DNA of 32,000 bases from Candidatus Harpocratesius repetitus (GCA_021498095.1 JAIZWK010000001.1:2610001-2642000), one strand, 5' to 3'; positions 9,749-16,732 are shown, counted from the stretch's first letter. Numbers and translations: made by a program. The notes: generated from the sequence alone by a model not told the origin.

Positions 9749-12112
9749 ATGAATGATCGAATCCGAAAACTTCGTGAGCAAAGTTTAAACGCAACTCCCG
9801 AGATTTCAATTGAACGGGCAAAACTATTAACTGAATTTTATTCTTCAGATGCTGTACAGCAATATTCAACACCAATTGTTAGAGCACTTGCTTTTAAATA
9901 TCTATTAGAACACAAAAAAATTTGTATCAATGAAGAGGAATTAATTGTAGGAGAACGCGGTCCCGCACCGGGAGCTACACCTACATATCCTGAAATTTGT
10001 TGTCATACTGTGAAAGATCTTGATATTCTAAATTCTAGAGAGAAAATTTCTTTTAAAGTTTCAGATGAAACACGAAAATTGACCGAAACTTTGATTTTAC
10101 CATTTTGGAAAGGGAAATCGATTCGAGATAAAATCTTTCAAGCTGTAGACCGAGAGTGGATCGATGCTTATGAAGCAGGAATTTTTACTGAATTTATGGA
10201 ACAGCGAGCACCTGGACATACGGTTGCTGGAAAACAAGTATTTCAAAAAGGTTTGAGAGATTTTCAAGATGAAATTCAAGAATCAATAAATAATTTGAAT
10301 TTTTTTACTGATCCAGAAGCTTTTACAAAACGTGAGCAGTTAAATGCTATGCATATCGCTGCAGAAGCTCTTATTTCTTATGCTGAACGATATGCAAATT
10401 TAGCAAGAAGCATGGCATCACAAGCACAAGATCAACAACGAAAACGTGAACTTGAACAAATTGCACAGATTTGTGAATATGTTCCAGCTAATGCACCTAG
10501 AACCTTTTGGGAAGCATTACAGCATTACTGGTTTATTCATATAGGTGTGATTACTGAACTTAATACTTGGGATTCATTCAATCCAGGGAGATTGGATCAA
10601 AATTTATTTCCTTTTTTACAAAGGGAACAAAATGAAGGAACATGGGATGAAAATTTTGCTCGTGAATTATTACAAGCTTTTTGGATAAAATTTAATAATC
10701 AACCTGCTCCTCCTAAGGTTGGGGTAACTGCTGAAGAAAGTAATACATACACGGATTTCTGCAATATTAATATTGGAGGTTTAACAACTGATGGATCTGA
10801 TGGTGTAAATGAGATTTCCTATATGATTTTAGATACTATAGAAGAAATGCGAATTTTACAACCTAGCTCAAATGTTCAAATTAGTAAAAAAACCCCTGAT
10901 CGATTTTTAAAACGCGCTTTAAAAATTATTAAAACAGGATTCGGTCAACCCTCTGTATTTAATTGTGATGCAATTATTCAAGAATTAGTTCGTCAAGGTA
11001 AAGATTTGATTGACGCTCGCTTATCTGGAGCAAGTGGTTGCGTTGAAGTTGGTGCATTTGGTAAAGAAGCTTACATTTTAACAGGGTATTTTAATTTAGT
11101 AAAGGTACTCGAAATAACACTTCATAACGGATTTGATCCGCGTACTCAAAAGCAAATAGGGTTGAAAACTGGGGAATTATCGGATTTTAAGACTTTTGAT
11201 GATTTATTTTCAGCTTATAAAAAACAATTAAAACACTTTTTAGATATTAAAATTAAAGGAAATCAAATAATTGAACAAATCTGGGCTACACAATTACCTG
11301 CAGTATTTTTATCAATTATAATAGATGATTGCATTAAAAATGGTAAAGATTATAATGCAGGGGGTGCGAAATATAATAGTTCATATATTCAAATTGTTGG
11401 TATGGGTTCAATATCTGATTCATTAGCTGCGTTGAAATATCACGTTTTTGATAATCATACAATAAAACTTCCTGAGTTTGTTAAAATTTTAGATAAAAAT
11501 TTTGTAGGAAGTAATGAATTTCGTCAAAAATTACTAAAAGAAACTCCAAAATATGGTAATGATGATGATTATGTTGATTGCCTCGCTCATAATGTGTTTG
11601 AAGTTGTTTTTTCTTTAGTAGATGGAAGGCCTACTTCAAAAGGAGGTCAATATAGGATTAATTTGCTCCCAACTACGGTTCATGTATATTTTGGTAGTGT
11701 AATCGGTGCAACACCAGATGGAAGAGAAGCGAAGATGCCTCTTTCTGAAGGAATTTCGCCCGTTCAAGGTGCTGATATTCAAGGACCTACTGCTGTAATT
11801 AGGTCTGCGGCAAAATTAGATCACCTGCGTACCGGAGGAACATTACTAAATCAGAAATTCAATCCATCATTATTTCATGATAATATAGGAATTCAAAAAA
11901 TCTTACATTTAATACGCGCTTATTTCAAAATGGATGGGCACCATATTCAATTCAATGTAGTTGATGCAGAAACTTTGCGTGCTGCTCAAAAAAATCCCGA
12001 ACAGTATCGAAATTTAATTGTGCGTGTGGCAGGATATAGTGATTATTTTATTAACTTAGGTTCTCAATTGCAAAATGAAATAATACGAAGAACAGAACAT
12101 CAATCTTTTTGA
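9749..12112 (+). CDS. hypD: Glycyl-radical enzyme, trans-4-hydroxy-L-proline dehydratase type
   Basis: 787 aa with RVAGYS (glycyl radical) and a single-Cys SGCVE loop. HypD-like segments TEFMEQRAPGHT, ELNTWDSF, ESNTYTDF, AYILTGY and LLPTTVH parallel C. difficile HypD as recalled. Confidence 0.88.
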   Translation: MNDRIRKLREQSLNATPEISIERAKLLTEFYSSDAVQQYSTPIVRALAFKYLLEHKKICINEEELIVGERGPAPGATPTYPEICCHTVKDLDILNSREKISFKVSDETRKLTETLILPFWKGKSIRDKIFQAVDREWIDAYEAGIFTEFMEQRAPGHTVAGKQVFQKGLRDFQDEIQESINNLNFFTDPEAFTKREQLNAMHIAAEALISYAERYANLARSMASQAQDQQRKRELEQIAQICEYVPANAPRTFWEALQHYWFIHIGVITELNTWDSFNPGRLDQNLFPFLQREQNEGTWDENFARELLQAFWIKFNNQPAPPKVGVTAEESNTYTDFCNINIGGLTTDGSDGVNEISYMILDTIEEMRILQPSSNVQISKKTPDRFLKRALKIIKTGFGQPSVFNCDAIIQELVRQGKDLIDARLSGASGCVEVGAFGKEAYILTGYFNLVKVLEITLHNGFDPRTQKQIGLKTGELSDFKTFDDLFSAYKKQLKHFLDIKIKGNQIIEQIWATQLPAVFLSIIIDDCIKNGKDYNAGGAKYNSSYIQIVGMGSISDSLAALKYHVFDNHTIKLPEFVKILDKNFVGSNEFRQKLLKETPKYGNDDDYVDCLAHNVFEVVFSLVDGRPTSKGGQYRINLLPTTVHVYFGSVIGATPDGREAKMPLSEGISPVQGADIQGPTAVIRSAAKLDHLRTGGTLLNQKFNPSLFHDNIGIQKILHLIRAYFKMDGHHIQFNVVDAETLRAAQKNPEQYRNLIVRVAGYSDYFINLGSQLQNEIIRRTEHQSF

Positions 12113-12277: not shown

Positions 12278-13084
12278 CTATTTTAGGTTCTTTAATATGA
12301 AATCTAATTGATTCCACTTTGTAATGATGAAATTTGGTGTTTTTAATATATCAGATTCTATAATTTGTACATTTTTTTCTTTTTTTTTCTTATATTTTTG
12401 ATTTTTAGTTTCTTGAAATGATTTTTTTAGATTTTGTTTCTGATTTTCATTATTATATTGAATTAAACCGCTCCACCAACCTCTTAGATTAGCTCCTAAA
12501 ATATCTGTATCGATCCGATCTCCAATATGTACCATTTCTACTGGTTTACAATGAATAAAGGATTCTGCCATTTGGAATGGTTTTGAATGGGGTTTATAAT
12601 GCCCAATTTCATCAGAAAAAAAGCAGCGAGAAAAGTATTGAATAATTTTCTTACGTTTGAGCAATTCTCTCATAACATGGCCATAAGTAAATCCTGTATC
12701 ACTTATTAGAATTATTTTGTATTTTTCAGCAAGAATGGGTAGAAGATCTATAATTTCATGATAAAATTCAGGAGGATCATCTAGAAATATTTGATTAAAT
12801 GCATGAATTAAATTCTTCATTTCCTTTTCAGAAACTTTCAATTTAAAGGATTGAAAAAATTGTCTAAAGCGGTATTGATATGGAACATGTTTATATGCAT
12901 TTTCTTCGGTTAAAAATTCGACATATCCTCCTGCTTTTTCCATATAGAGGTTTTTTACCTGCTTCTTTGATACAAAAATTCCTTTTTTTTCTAAAAATTG
13001 ATGTAAAATTTCAGTGCGGGCTTCAAATTGAAAGTGATCTTTAATTAATGTTTCCCATAAATCAAATGATATACATTTTATCAT
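12278..13084 (-). CDS. HAD-superfamily hydrolase
   Basis: ISFDLWETL (motif I variant), LISDT (motif II), YKP (motif III) and HIGDRIDTDILGA (motif IV). ATG 13084 is preferred over 13123. Confidence 0.88.
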   Translation of the reverse strand: MIKCISFDLWETLIKDHFQFEARTEILHQFLEKKGIFVSKKQVKNLYMEKAGGYVEFLTEENAYKHVPYQYRFRQFFQSFKLKVSEKEMKNLIHAFNQIFLDDPPEFYHEIIDLLPILAEKYKIILISDTGFTYGHVMRELLKRKKIIQYFSRCFFSDEIGHYKPHSKPFQMAESFIHCKPVEMVHIGDRIDTDILGANLRGWWSGLIQYNNENQKQNLKKSFQETKNQKYKKKKEKNVQIIESDILKTPNFIITKWNQLDFILKNLK

Positions 13085-13633
13085 TAATTTCAATAAGATG
13101 CAATTAGAAAAAAAATAATCCATATCATCAAAAAACAGCGAAATTTTTCACACTCAACTTCAGTAATATTAAATAAATAGTGATAAGAAATTCAAATTCA
13201 GAATTGAGGGTATTTTAAATTTCAAAAATTCGAAGTTTTTCATTTCATCATCTTAATTCTTACAACTCAAATCCAAAATATCCTTCCTTATTTTTTGTCG
13301 ATTTTATCGACGTACCAAATTCAAGGTATGAAAATCAATAATTCTAATAAAAACGACTTCAGATTGAAGAATTTATAAACAGGATGGTGAATTTTTAACA
13401 AATTCTTTGAAAAAACCAAGTTCGACAAAAAAAGAATTGCGATATTTCAGAATTAAGTCGGAAATATCTGAATGATATTCAAAAAAGCGTTTAAATTAAA
13501 AAAGATAAAATATCCTCAATTTATTTTTTGCATTTTTATTCAAAAAAAAGTGATATAACCAAAATAAGCAAAAAATTTATGTCACAAAAGGCGCGTAATT
13601 AAATCTATTAATAATATAATAATTTTGAGCATT

Positions 13634-13921
13634 ATGAAAAAAAGTGAAACTCACACTGAATCATCAAATAAAGAACCAAATATAAAACCAACACTAAAAC
13701 CAACTGAAACACTAGATTGTATTGGTGTTTTTTGCCCAGAACCACTTTTTCAAACTCGATCTAAAATCGATGATTTAAATTGCGGTGATATTTTAGAAGT
13801 ATTTGCGGATGATCCAGCTTCTAAGGAAGATCTAACTCGGTTTTGTAAACGTACTGGTCATATATTGCTCAAAGTTGAAGAGAATGCAGGTGAATTTCGA
13901 TTTTTAATTCAAAAAAAATAG
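13634..13921 (+). CDS. tusA: TusA/SirA-family sulfur carrier protein
   Basis: LDCIGVFCPEP (CPxP persulfide motif) and LEVFADDPASKEDL...FCKRTGH. Confidence 0.92.
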   Translation: MKKSETHTESSNKEPNIKPTLKPTETLDCIGVFCPEPLFQTRSKIDDLNCGDILEVFADDPASKEDLTRFCKRTGHILLKVEENAGEFRFLIQKK

Positions 13922-13937
13922 TCAAAAAAGGTATCAG

Positions 13938-14312
13938 ATGAAAATAATGACTGAAAAAAAAGAATATCTACTCTATGTTCAAACAAGTGATAACCCCGAA
14001 AGGCAATATTCTCCTCTAATTTTAGCCCAATCTGCCAAAGCTATGGATATTGATGCAAAAGTATATTATTTAGGGCAAGGATTAAGGGTTTTATTGCCTG
14101 AAACAGCTCAAAAAATCCAATTTGGAACATTTCCTAATCTTTTTGATACATTAGTTAAAACCAATAAAATGGGTATTCCGATTTATGTATGTGAAGCTTC
14201 AAAACAAATGTTAGGTTGGGAATCCATAGAATTACCTTCTTTTTTGCAAATTGTAGGTGCAGCTACTTTAAATGATCTAGTATATGATGCTAAGGGAACA
14301 ATGTGGTTCTAA
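13938..14312 (+). CDS. DsrE/DsrF-like sulfur-relay protein
   Basis: VYYLGQGLRVL, IYVCEAS (conserved DsrE Cys region) and IVGAATLNDL; follows tusA by 16 bp. Confidence 0.85.
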   Translation: MKIMTEKKEYLLYVQTSDNPERQYSPLILAQSAKAMDIDAKVYYLGQGLRVLLPETAQKIQFGTFPNLFDTLVKTNKMGIPIYVCEASKQMLGWESIELPSFLQIVGAATLNDLVYDAKGTMWF

Positions 14313-14361
14313 TTTTTATAATATTAAGATTATTAAACACCAAATTAAAGGAGATCAAAAA

Positions 14362-15603
14362 ATGATAACTCAAAATTCTCAAAGTTCTCAAAGTTCTCAA
14401 AGTTATAAGAATAGAGATGAACCTCAAAAGCATCAAATTATTAATTTGGATTACCAATCAAGCAAACCTGTTGATGAACGTGTGATTCAACACATGATTC
14501 CTTATTTTAACCAAATCTACGGCAATCCTTCTTCTTTACATACAATTGGTGATAAAGCAGAAGATGCTATGGCCAAAGCTCGCGAACAAATTGCCCATTT
14601 TCTTTCTGTTTTACCTGAAGAAATTTATTTTACTTCTGGCGCCACAGAATCGATTAATTTAGCATTGATTGGATATGCAATTCGCAATCGACGAAAGGGC
14701 AATCATATTATTATGTCAGAAGTGGAGCATATTTCACAACACAATCTTGCGAAATATTTAGAAAAAAATGGATTTGTGGTATCTAAAGTTCCTGTAGATC
14801 AATACGGCAAAATTCGAATAGATAAACTTAGAAAAAGAATTACAGAAAAAACTATTCTAATTTCTGTGCAGTATGCTAATAATGAAATTGGAACTATTCA
14901 ACCAATTAAAGAAGTGGGAGAAATTGCTGCAGAAATGGGTATCGCTTTTCATTCCGATGCAGTAGCAGCTCAAGGACAAATTACTTTAAACCCAAAACAA
15001 CACCATATTAATCTAATGTCCATAAGTAGCAATGATTTTTATGGTCCTAAAGGAATTGGAGTATTATATCTTCAGAAAGGATATAGAGTTTCTCCATTAT
15101 TAATTGGAGGAGGACAAGAAAAAGGAATTCGATCAGGAACTGAAAATGTGGCGGGTATTGTTGGAATGGCTTATGCAACTAAATTGCTTGAAGAACATCA
15201 AGCCGAAGAAGTAGAACGTTATAAATCTTTTCAAAAAAAACTTCAGAATGAAATACTTGATTCCGTTCCTCATTCATATCTTAATGGACACCCTAAAGAA
15301 CGATTACCAAATAATTCACATTTCAGATTTGATGGCATTGAAGGTGAATCCATCTTATTGATGTTTAAAGAACATAATATAGCTGTATCAACAGGGTCTG
15401 CTTGTAGTTCTAAAACATTAGAACCCTCTCATACATTAATATCGACAGGGTTATTACATGAAGAAGCACACGGTTCGTTAGAATTTACCACAGGTCGATT
15501 TACCAAAGAAGATCATATTTCAAAAGCAGTGGAATTAACACCAAAAATTGTCGAGCGCCTTCGTGCCATTTCTCCACTGTATTCCAAAACAAAGGTGATA
15601 TAA
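14362..15603 (+). CDS. iscS: IscS/NifS-type cysteine desulfurase homolog lacking the PLP-binding Lys (Archaeoglobus-type)
   Basis: GNPSSLH, FTSGATES, NNEIGTIQP, RSGTEN and STGSACSS (catalytic Cys at 15403-15405), but SSNDFYGPKG replaces SxHKxYGPKG. Start ATG 14362 follows an aaggag RBS. Confidence 0.92.
   Translation: MITQNSQSSQSSQSYKNRDEPQKHQIINLDYQSSKPVDERVIQHMIPYFNQIYGNPSSLHTIGDKAEDAMAKAREQIAHFLSVLPEEIYFTSGATESINLALIGYAIRNRRKGNHIIMSEVEHISQHNLAKYLEKNGFVVSKVPVDQYGKIRIDKLRKRITEKTILISVQYANNEIGTIQPIKEVGEIAAEMGIAFHSDAVAAQGQITLNPKQHHINLMSISSNDFYGPKGIGVLYLQKGYRVSPLLIGGGQEKGIRSGTENVAGIVGMAYATKLLEEHQAEEVERYKSFQKKLQNEILDSVPHSYLNGHPKERLPNNSHFRFDGIEGESILLMFKEHNIAVSTGSACSSKTLEPSHTLISTGLLHEEAHGSLEFTTGRFTKEDHISKAVELTPKIVERLRAISPLYSKTKVI
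14371..14406 (+). repeat. In-frame 9-bp tandem repeat (caaagttct x4, outer copies with 1 mismatch; QNSQSSQSSQSY)
   Basis: Seen directly at the iscS N-terminus. Confidence 0.8.
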
Positions 15604-16415
15604 TGAAATCAACAAAATATTCAGAAAAAGTATTAGAACATTTCCGAAATCCCCAGAATGTTGGCACTCTTTCTGGTGAAAATGTTGCTCTCGGAAGAGT
15701 AGGTAATCCTACCTGCGGTGACATTATGGAAATGTACATAAAAGTCGAAGATAATATCATTAAAGATATTAAATTTCAAACATTTGGATGCGGTTCAGCT
15801 GTAGCAACCAGTTCTATGACAACACTAATGGTCAAAGGAATGACATTAGATGAAGCTTTAAAGGTAACTCGAAAAGATGTGGCTGAAGAATTGGACGGTC
15901 TTCCCCCAATAAAGATGCATTGTAGTAACCTGGCTGCAGATGCACTGCATGAAGCAATTAAGAACTATAAGGCAGGAATATTAGTAGAGCAACCTGAATC
16001 TATTGAAAAACCGATAGAAAATAAATCTATTTTGGGAGAATTAGAGTACCTTGGAAAAGGTGTTTATTATTCAATAACTAATAAGGATTATTTCAAAGAT
16101 CAACGGGTTTTAATTCGATATAATGGTGATGAAAGCATTCGTGCTGCTTTGGAATTAACAAAAATTACCAATCGAGTTATAATTTCAACTTCTTCAACCA
16201 AGATCCATACAGATGATAAAGAATTAAAAACTCAATTACGAAATTCAAATGTAAAAATTCTAACTGAAGCAAAAATTTTGGCTGTTATGGGGGATGATGA
16301 AGTCGAAAAGGTTCGAATGCTGGATTTAGATGAAGATAGTGAATACGATATTTTTGTCGATCGGTTGGTATTGTTAAATACGGTTTCAATTCCACCTGTT
16401 TGCGAGAATGTATAG
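15603..16415 (+). CDS. iscU: IscU/NifU-N Fe-S scaffold fused to a degenerate thioredoxin-reductase NADPH-domain-like module
   Basis: Residues 1-125 carry GNPTC38GD, FGC63GSA and KMH106C107S. Residues 143-260 (GELEYLGKGVYYSITNKDYFKDQRVLI...) align by eye with the TrxB GxGVSxCATCD-xFxxxxVxVxGGG region. The start overlaps the iscS stop (taatg). Confidence 0.88.
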   Translation: MKSTKYSEKVLEHFRNPQNVGTLSGENVALGRVGNPTCGDIMEMYIKVEDNIIKDIKFQTFGCGSAVATSSMTTLMVKGMTLDEALKVTRKDVAEELDGLPPIKMHCSNLAADALHEAIKNYKAGILVEQPESIEKPIENKSILGELEYLGKGVYYSITNKDYFKDQRVLIRYNGDESIRAALELTKITNRVIISTSSTKIHTDDKELKTQLRNSNVKILTEAKILAVMGDDEVEKVRMLDLDEDSEYDIFVDRLVLLNTVSIPPVCENV

Positions 16416-16439: not shown

Positions 16440-16519
16440 TTTTTTAGTTTTTCACTTTTTTAGTTTTTCACTTTTTTAGTTTTTCACTTTTTTAGTTTTT
16501 CACTTTTTTAGTTTTTTAC
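16440..16519 (+). repeat. 16-bp tandem repeat (ttttttagtttttcac x5, last copy 1 mismatch) in the terminator region of the isc operon
   Basis: Four perfect head-to-tail copies plus a fifth near-perfect copy; no spacers. Confidence 0.93.
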
Positions 16520-16732
16520 TAAATTTGAATAGATATTGAAGAGATCAAGTTATTAGAATACAAAACTTTCATTTTTTAACGATTTTATTGTACTTAAAAG
16601 TATCTCCCAAATATTTTATTTCCCAAAATTTTTTAGGGTTTCGCGTTGATGTTATCCCACAAGCAAACATTTGAGGAGATTATTGAATTTCCTTATGAAT
16701 ATGATTGCATTTATTGGAGTTGAATTATAACT

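Follow-up and report, generated by a model that had tools for sequence, protein, structure and literature searches.

How does an iron-sulfur (Fe-S) cluster scaffold obtain sulfur when the cysteine desulfurase homologue encoded beside it lacks the Schiff-base lysine? The discovery that the enzyme is inactive left the sulfur supply of IscS-IscU pairs of the Archaeoglobus fulgidus type unexplained (PMC8918507). The same question is posed by a 32,000-nucleotide (nt) window of the Candidatus Harpocratesius repetitus genome (GCA_021498095.1, JAIZWK010000001.1:2610001-2642000), the whole stretch analysed here, in which positions are counted from the window start. Between 13634 and 16415 the window carries tusA, dsrE, a gene for a lysine-less IscS (here IscS*, gene iscS*) and a gene for an IscU scaffold fused to a thioredoxin reductase (TrxR)-like domain. 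This feature is real, conserved and specifically linked to the lysine-less state of IscS, and a mechanism in which TusA and DsrE relay sulfur to IscS* is plausible.

IscS* belongs to a lysine-less clade

IscS* matches Aminotran_5 (244.5 bits), and the best match among solved structures is A. fulgidus IscS2 (4EB5), to which it aligns over its full length (E 9e-122). The IscS* motif SSNDFYGPKG lies over SSNDIYGPKG of the A. fulgidus enzyme, and over SSNKIYGPKG of its D199K mutant (4R5F). Asn224 (15031-15033) and Asp225 (GAT, 15034-15036) thus align to the His-Lys pair of Lys-type enzymes. IscS* further contains Ala202 (14965-14967) and a type I loop cysteine, Cys348 (STGSACSS; 15403-15405). An initial annotation, made from the sequence of this window, had described an IscS that keeps its mobile-loop cysteine and lacks the Schiff-base lysine, and both residue states are as it stated. 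The lysine expected of an IscS/NifS cysteine desulfurase is therefore absent, and IscS* falls short of all the NCBIfam equivalog cut-offs (NifS, for example, at 452 against 530.75).

Comparison of 123 sequences carrying the Asn-Asp (ND) motif or belonging to its clade with 73 Lys-type sequences reveals a consistent difference at only four positions, at which Ser125, Ala202, Asn224 and Asp225 of the ND clade stand against Ala, Gln (in 100% of Lys-type sequences), His and Lys, respectively. Thr95, His123, Asp199 and Cys348 are common to both groups. The Gln, His and Lys of IscS all contact pyridoxal phosphate (PLP), and the four-position pattern suggests concerted remodelling of the cofactor site rather than decay. 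IscS* itself is predicted to be unable to cleave cysteine, having lost the Schiff-base Lys, the His before it and the Gln that contacts PLP. With its ND motif, Ala for Gln, loop cysteine and tree placement, it is a member of the A. fulgidus IscS2-like clade. The A. fulgidus protein has no desulfurase activity and binds pyridoxamine phosphate, and its loop cysteine is a ligand of the [2Fe-2S] cluster held by IscU (PMC8918507).

In a FastTree phylogeny of 205 IscS sequences rooted at the midpoint, 123 ND or NS sequences and one long-branch Tyr-Lys sequence form a single clade (support 0.79). Its sister group is made up of five Lys-type sequences, two of them archaeal iscS-iscU genes of the minimal ISC (MIS) type (L307, and L304/L308, which is one gene sampled twice), and the node joining the ND clade to this Lys-type sister has a support of 0.998. 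On this midpoint-rooted placement, loss of the lysine is derived and essentially single. One further sequence, from an Archaeoglobaceae locus (L328, G216:C1:106897-111042), reads SAHQFYGPKG, with Gln in place of Lys, and shows the Gln-to-Ala change as well. It is placed outside the ND clade, and so appears to represent a second, independent lysine loss; tusA lies upstream of this gene and iscU downstream, making it likewise tusA-linked.

Carrier genes accompany lysine-less IscS in Asgard archaea

Promethearchaeum syntrophicum, Lokiarchaeum ossiferum and one Thorarchaeote share the order tusA-dsrE-iscS-iscU. A search of 201 Asgard genomes with the DsrE protein of the operon, followed by examination of 50 loci, returned tusA-dsrE-iscS at 43 of them, while the other seven have dsrE, or tusA and dsrE, with no adjoining iscS. 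Every linked IscS readable at the motif is lysine-less (42/42; 40 SSND, 2 SANS). A strong match to IscS* occurs in 116/201 Asgard genomes, concentrated in families f1 (3/3), f2 (39/40), f7 (37/43) and f12 (15/19); none was found in families f5 (0/21), f14 (0/7) and f20 (0/7).

The two SANS proteins come from ~1.4-Mb genomes of Asgard family f3 (L049 and L051). They have a shifted loop (STGASCAS) and the PLP region HCDATAG, and their genes still stand in the order tusA-dsrE-iscS-iscU. Some Promethearchaeota loci with tusA and no dsrE (L067:2333-4732, L064, L131) contain a gene of ~800 codons directly after iscU, whose product combines a Pyr_redox_2 domain resembling CoA-disulfide/persulfide reductase with a TusA domain and rhodanese domains. 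The Harpocratesius genome has, elsewhere, a TusA domain inside an 835-residue frame (G000:C1:2200173-2200382).

Linkage to the lysine-less state beyond Asgard archaea

A scan with the back-translated ND motif, using one genome per prokaryotic species, yielded at least 80 loci, all listed ones with IscS homologues. The listed loci come from Bathyarchaeia, Hadarchaeota, Thermoplasmatota, Methanosarcinales, Methanomassiliicoccales, Methanocellales, Methanophagales, Geoglobus, Nitrososphaerota metagenome-assembled genomes (MAGs) and several bacterial MAGs, at least 10 archaeal or bacterial groups overall. Carriers were sought with hidden Markov models (HMMs) built from the Asgard orthologues, and the counts cover the ND genes preceded by 800 bp or more of sequence (n = 59). 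Among the matches listed, 50/59 have tusA upstream on the same strand, 34/59 have dsrE and 31/59 have both; among the same matches, iscU lies downstream in 47 of the 62 ND loci with readable downstream DNA, and the TrxR-like domain is present in 15/62.

A control scan of metagenome contigs with the same pattern carrying His-Lys codons gave 79 Lys-type IscS genes. Neither tusA nor dsrE precedes any of those with upstream DNA (0/49), and iscU lies downstream in 32/59. A matched control in five non-Asgard archaeal genomes gives the same separation: tusA is found at 6/6 ND loci and dsrE at 5/6, and of the three Lys-type iscS-iscU pairs in these genomes none has either gene. Linkage of tusA and dsrE therefore tracks the lysine-less state of IscS. 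The initial annotation had suggested a search for tusA and dsrE beside SSND-type iscS in Asgard and other archaea, and had regarded a gene order unique to this genome as fatal to its proposal; the order is instead kept across Asgard families and far beyond them.

Within the Archaeoglobaceae, tusA is present at 11/11 loci, often overlapping iscS, and dsrE also at 4/11. A. fulgidus DSM 4304 has a dsrE of the cluster type (166 bits) directly upstream of the crystallised IscS2. Further upstream of this dsrE-iscS2-iscU set (L356, AE000782.1:508338-517486) are a fragment of a DtxR-like iron-dependent repressor and pieces of feoB, neighbours that link the A. fulgidus cassette to iron uptake genes, in a region where gene calls are fragmented.

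Clustering of the neighbouring ORFs (open reading frames) of ~100 loci gave no further universal partner, only lineage-specific synteny with scattered flavodiiron, P-type ATPase and CoADR-TusA-rhodanese genes. Four Bathyarchaeia loci (L088, L097, L135, L140) have an ND iscS-iscU pair with no tusA or dsrE, and share a flavodiiron-like gene (ODP and flavodoxin domains) and a gene for a ~190-residue protein with no Pfam match. Among proteins of at least 724 residues, no fusion of IscS* to TusA or DsrE was found; the fusions seen join IscS* to SelD, molybdopterin oxidoreductase, MnmA-like, rhodanese and ThiI domains.

The two carriers

TusA from the operon matches PF01206 with 81.8 bits (gathering cut-off 28.6), and E. 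coli TusA (1DCJ/3LVJ) is the nearest solved structure (E 2e-12). Cys34, Pro35 and Pro37 of the CPEP motif, which the initial annotation had written as CPxP, are invariant across 35 cluster-linked orthologues. The protein scores 68.2 bits against a cut-off of 78 for the E. coli-type equivalog NF001423, and is thus TusA-like by its profile matches rather than the E. coli equivalog. A selenium-related reading was considered and rejected, the match to YedF lying far under its cut-off and the cassette being common where selenocysteine use is not known.

DsrE matches PF02635 (40.3 bits; gathering cut-off 22.7), and its nearest solved structure is Sulfolobus solfataricus SSO1125 (3MC3; E 2e-8), with Cys85 aligned to the cysteine of the YVC motif. 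This cysteine is kept in at least 95% of 55 orthologues; the initial annotation had also noted a DsrE cysteine. The SSO1125 protein is named DsrE3A and belongs to a family that mobilises polysulfide sulfur and acts with TusA in sulfur-transfer cascades (PMC11094781). By its similarity to 3MC3, the operon DsrE is classed as DsrE3-like, nearest the DsrE3A type. DsrE orthologues with 63-70% identity stand alone in some Asgard genomes (L025, L029, L030, L041, L042), next to a radical SAM/DUF3641 gene, a solute-binding protein, an AAA ATPase and a VWA protein, and some of the genomes with such a lone orthologue also carry a second, more distant dsrE within the cassette.

The IscU fusion protein

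The IscU domain matches NifU_N (159.9 bits) and TIGR03419 (188.9 against a cut-off of 187.9), and has every cluster ligand: Cys38, Asp40, Cys63, His106 and Cys107. An AlphaFold2 model of the fusion protein (pLDDT 81.8) contains two domains, the first of which superposes on Methanothrix IscU (7C8M/7C8N) with a TM score of 0.88. The initial annotation was right about the complete set of ligands, and about the fusion to a TrxR-like domain. The C-terminal domain matches TIGR01292 with E 1.8e-12 but only 46.7 bits against a cut-off of 343, and only over profile positions 116-228 of 300. Its modelled structure has the TrxR NADPH-domain fold (Foldseek E ~1e-11 to 2ZBW, 4GCM and 3F8D; rmsd ~2 A over ~123 residues). 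The motifs of the enzyme are lost, with SITN where CxxC is expected and YNGDES where GGGDSA is expected, and no cysteine is conserved among 120 homologues, so of a thioredoxin reductase only the NADPH-domain fold is kept. IscU-TrxR-like fusions are common in Lokiarchaeia, Thorarchaeota and Sifarchaeia. In three Methanosarcinales loci (L084, L310, L313) a weak match to the C-terminal domain (32-63 bits) follows a linker of ~350 nt after IscU, in the same frame region; this weak match fits the 24.2-kDa IscU1 reported for Methanosarcina acetivorans.

A proposed inward sulfur relay

We lean towards reading the operon as a sulfur-relay-fed version of the archaeal MIS system, in which persulfide would be relayed inward to IscS*-IscU. 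TusA Cys34 and DsrE Cys85 would carry sulfane sulfur as persulfides, with DsrE loading TusA. TusA would then dock on IscS* as E. coli TusA does on IscS, and sulfur would pass to Cys348 of IscS*, opposite to the textbook direction, before reaching the cluster site of IscU. TusA is likely the core partner in this scheme, and the DsrE3-like protein an optional loader. The sulfur may come ultimately from sulfide or polysulfide, or from the normal desulfurases of the cell. An inward relay is the simplest reading because an IscS* presumably unable to cleave cysteine keeps the cysteine that reaches IscU, and the carriers are its fixed partners where the lysine is missing. A complex prediction for IscS* with residues 20-95 of TusA, run on alignments made for this analysis, returned a score of 0.00, which weighs neither for nor against binding.

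Several points weigh against this proposal. We infer the binding of the carriers to IscS* and the direction of transfer, and with them the order from DsrE through TusA to IscS* and the sources of sulfur and electrons. Two electrons are required to turn persulfide sulfur into cluster sulfide, and the operon encodes no reductase, the TrxR-like domain being without redox motifs. The carriers are not obligatory: among the matches listed, neither is found at 6/59 ND loci and dsrE is absent from ~40%, and tusA is not detectable within 4 kb of A. fulgidus IscS2. Since one clade holds nearly all the lysine-less sequences, the linkage counts are not independent, and amount to about two origins followed by long retention. 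The Lys-type control drew on metagenome contigs, largely of bacterial origin, and the HMMs were trained on linked archaeal carriers. In the Harpocratesius genome tusA lies beside a normal IscS too, in a different, divergent arrangement, so proximity to tusA alone is not diagnostic.

In the strongest alternative, the relay also runs inward and carries sulfur from cysteine. A normal Lys-bearing IscS would persulfidate TusA or DsrE, and these carriers would then feed IscS*-IscU as a specialised branch of ordinary cysteine-based assembly. The Harpocratesius genome, a single 4.36-Mb contig, encodes two full-length Lys-bearing IscS proteins (SAHK[FI]YGPKG), through which cysteine-derived sulfur could still enter the relay, and Lys-type paralogues occur as well in ND-bearing genomes of Methanosarcinales, Thermoplasmatota and Bathyarchaeia. 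Transfer from IscS to TusA is an established E. coli reaction (PMC2854127, PMC11302665). However, several ND-bearing genomes (Geoglobus and Hadesarchaea MAGs and three Archaeoglobaceae genomes) show no other strong NifS/IscS-type gene, and A. fulgidus is reported to have the Asp substitution and no desulfurase activity in both of its IscS copies (bioRxiv 10.1101/2024.03.20.586028). As the linkage persists where a cysteine desulfurase is not detectable, we regard a cysteine-fed relay as unlikely, though a serious contender.

Sulfur might instead flow outward, with IscS*-IscU capturing sulfide on the cluster or on Cys348 and passing it to TusA and then DsrE, as a supply line for thio-cofactors and thiolation (tRNA s2U, thiamine, molybdopterin). 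This follows the textbook order from IscS through TusA to TusD, a member of the DsrE family, and the L. ossiferum cluster has genes for ThiI, ThiF and a second TusA just upstream. IscS*, however, has no means to oxidise sulfide to the persulfide level, no oxidant is encoded, and IscU keeps every cluster ligand and accompanies most ND genes. The genome, moreover, already has a classical thiolation set apart from the operon: one of the Lys-bearing IscS genes (L002, G000:C1:3076328-3080434) adjoins a ThiF/MoeB-like E1 gene, a divergent tusA and three DsrE/F/H-like genes, and is assigned by its neighbours to the IscS-TusA-TusBCD type. One SufB-like (SMS) gene and a total of six TusA-domain genes complete the sulfur genes noted in this genome. 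Outward flow is accordingly improbable, and a lesser prospect than a cysteine-fed relay.

Less probable again is a role for TusA and DsrE in regulating or stabilising the complex without carrying sulfur, for example through competition of TusA with IscU for the surface of IscS*, gating assembly. E. coli TusA and IscU bind competing IscS sites and redirect its activity (PMC11302665, PMC11446229). The persulfide-carrying cysteines of both proteins are, however, invariant or nearly so across phyla, which weakens this explanation because regulation by steric means alone would not depend on these residues. That the adjacency is meaningless, or iscS* a decaying pseudogene, is scarcely credible given a gene order kept across phyla, an intact iscS* frame, and a mean column identity of 64% over 35 orthologues with many invariant residues.

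Organisation of the locus

The four ORFs are separated by gaps of 16 nt and 49 nt, and iscS* and the iscU fusion gene overlap by 1 nt through TAATG (Table 1). The tight co-directional packing described in the initial annotation agrees with these coordinates, as does a repeat-expanded T-tract at the end; all that it stated about the sequence itself was borne out. The arrangement goes beyond chance because the same order recurs in dozens of genomes, and we favour a single operon to the same modest degree as, and jointly with, the relay reading as a whole. The T-rich repeat is likely a terminator region, judging by its T tracts. GGAG- and AGGT-like sequences resembling ribosome-binding sites lie ahead of iscS* and dsrE. 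An alternative tusA start is possible at a TTG (13625), and the iscS* frame is open already from 14284, upstream of its ATG. The Gln/Ser-rich N-terminal extension of IscS* is absent from orthologues, whose alignments begin near residue 22-27. The IscU fusion is 64% identical to the protein of P. syntrophicum and 61% identical to that of L. ossiferum, values that fit the Asgard origin assigned in the initial annotation.

On the 5' side of the operon are a gene for a PFL-like glycyl-radical enzyme at 9749-12112 (PF02901, 736 bits, plus Gly_radical) and a gene for a HAD-family hydrolase on the minus strand at 12278-13123, divergent to tusA. Neither appears to have a link to the operon. The ORF list and Pfam profiles revealed no hscAB, iscA or fdx in the operon neighbourhood.

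Table 1. Features of the tusA-dsrE-iscS*-iscU locus, numbered from the start of the 32,000-nt window
Feature	Position	Strand	Description	Basis
Presumed promoter region	13124..13633	+	AT-rich intergenic; 510 nt between divergent HAD-hydrolase gene and tusA	
tusA	13634..13921	+	95 aa; CPEP at 13733-13744	PF01206
dsrE	13938..14312	+	DsrE3-like, 124 aa; Cys85 at 14190-14192	PF02635
iscS* (misS-like)	14362..15603	+	413 aa; ATG at 14362	Aminotran_5; A. fulgidus IscS2 match
Tandem repeat, iscS* 5' end	14369..14404	+	9 nt x 4; Gln/Ser-rich N-terminal extension	
iscU fusion gene	15603..16415	+	Overlaps iscS* by 1 nt	
IscU scaffold domain	15603..15977	+	Residues 1-125	NifU_N, TIGR03419
TrxR NADPH-domain-like C-terminal domain	16026..16379	+	~Residues 142-259	TIGR01292, Foldseek
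T-rich tandem repeat	16440..16520	+	Directly 3' of iscU; 16-nt unit TTTTTTAGTTTTTCAC x 5.1	

Relation to known systems

The closest described counterpart is A. fulgidus IscS2-IscU (4EB5, 4EB7, 4HVK; D199K variant 4R5F), which shares the SSND motif and loop cysteine, has dsrE directly upstream, and whose IscU matches the fusion protein with E 3e-45. A. fulgidus IscU is, however, a single domain of 153 residues, whereas a TrxR-like C-terminal domain is added here, and tusA is part of the operon rather than beyond detection. The A. fulgidus pair has been treated alone, without carriers, in published work. A 2024 preprint reports that A. fulgidus iscS2U2 by itself did not complement E. coli, not even when Na2S was supplied, and its authors raise the question of what else the pair needs (bioRxiv 10.1101/2024.03.20.586028).

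The MIS system (MisS and MisU) is described as a cysteine desulfurase with a scaffold and no carrier (PMC13066941, PMC12192291). The present locus resembles it in its adjacent two-gene iscS-iscU core (a misS-misU pair) without HscAB, IscA or Fdx, in its occurrence in anaerobic archaea, and in a genome that has a SufB-like (SMS) gene. It departs from MIS in lacking the catalytic lysine and in having two carrier genes as constant partners. The E. coli IscS-TusA-TusBCD relay (3LVJ) draws on the same families, IscS, TusA and DsrE/TusD. There, IscS is active and supplies TusA with sulfur destined for tRNA thiolation, and these genes do not share one operon with iscU, whereas IscS* is predicted not to produce persulfide and is accompanied by a single DsrE3-like gene instead of the TusBCD trio. 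A pair of DsrE3-type protein and TusA with the active-site cysteines kept is also known from the sulfur transfer of sulfur oxidisers (Metallosphaera cuprina; sHdr systems, PMC11094781). Those carriers serve dissimilatory oxidation through sHdr or rDsr, while the present pair is encoded in an Fe-S assembly operon of fermentative or syntrophic anaerobes.

Deere et al. reported that M. acetivorans IscS1 (MA0808) lacks the PLP residues and that IscU1 (MA0807) is 24.2 kDa, the two genes being clustered with four genes of unknown function. These extra genes were left unidentified, and isc1 was not studied by Deere et al. The sampled Methanosarcinales loci, which do not include M. acetivorans itself, show tusA-dsrE-iscS*-iscU and the weak C-terminal domain match. 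No paper linking tusA or dsrE to a lysine-less IscS was found in a literature search whose coverage did not include the paper defining MIS (Nat Ecol Evol 2022). The initial annotation had not recognised the four-part combination as a described system, and the search likewise gave no description of it.

Significance for archaeal Fe-S cluster assembly

The carriers encoded directly ahead of the lysine-less gene are concrete candidates for the parts missing from the A. fulgidus pair. More tentatively, and with somewhat less than even confidence, we propose that lysine-less IscS, IscU and TusA, often with DsrE, make up a distinct, ancient and widespread system of Fe-S biogenesis in anaerobic archaea, Asgard included, and in some bacteria. 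Clusters would be built from carrier-delivered persulfide, loaded from inorganic sulfur without cysteine cleavage, and the former enzyme would retain no role beyond that of cysteine-loop shuttle and cluster ligand. If this is true, MIS would no longer be a "minimal" two-protein machine, and the finding would bear on the production of Fe-S proteins in sediment anaerobes, the Asgard archaea among them.

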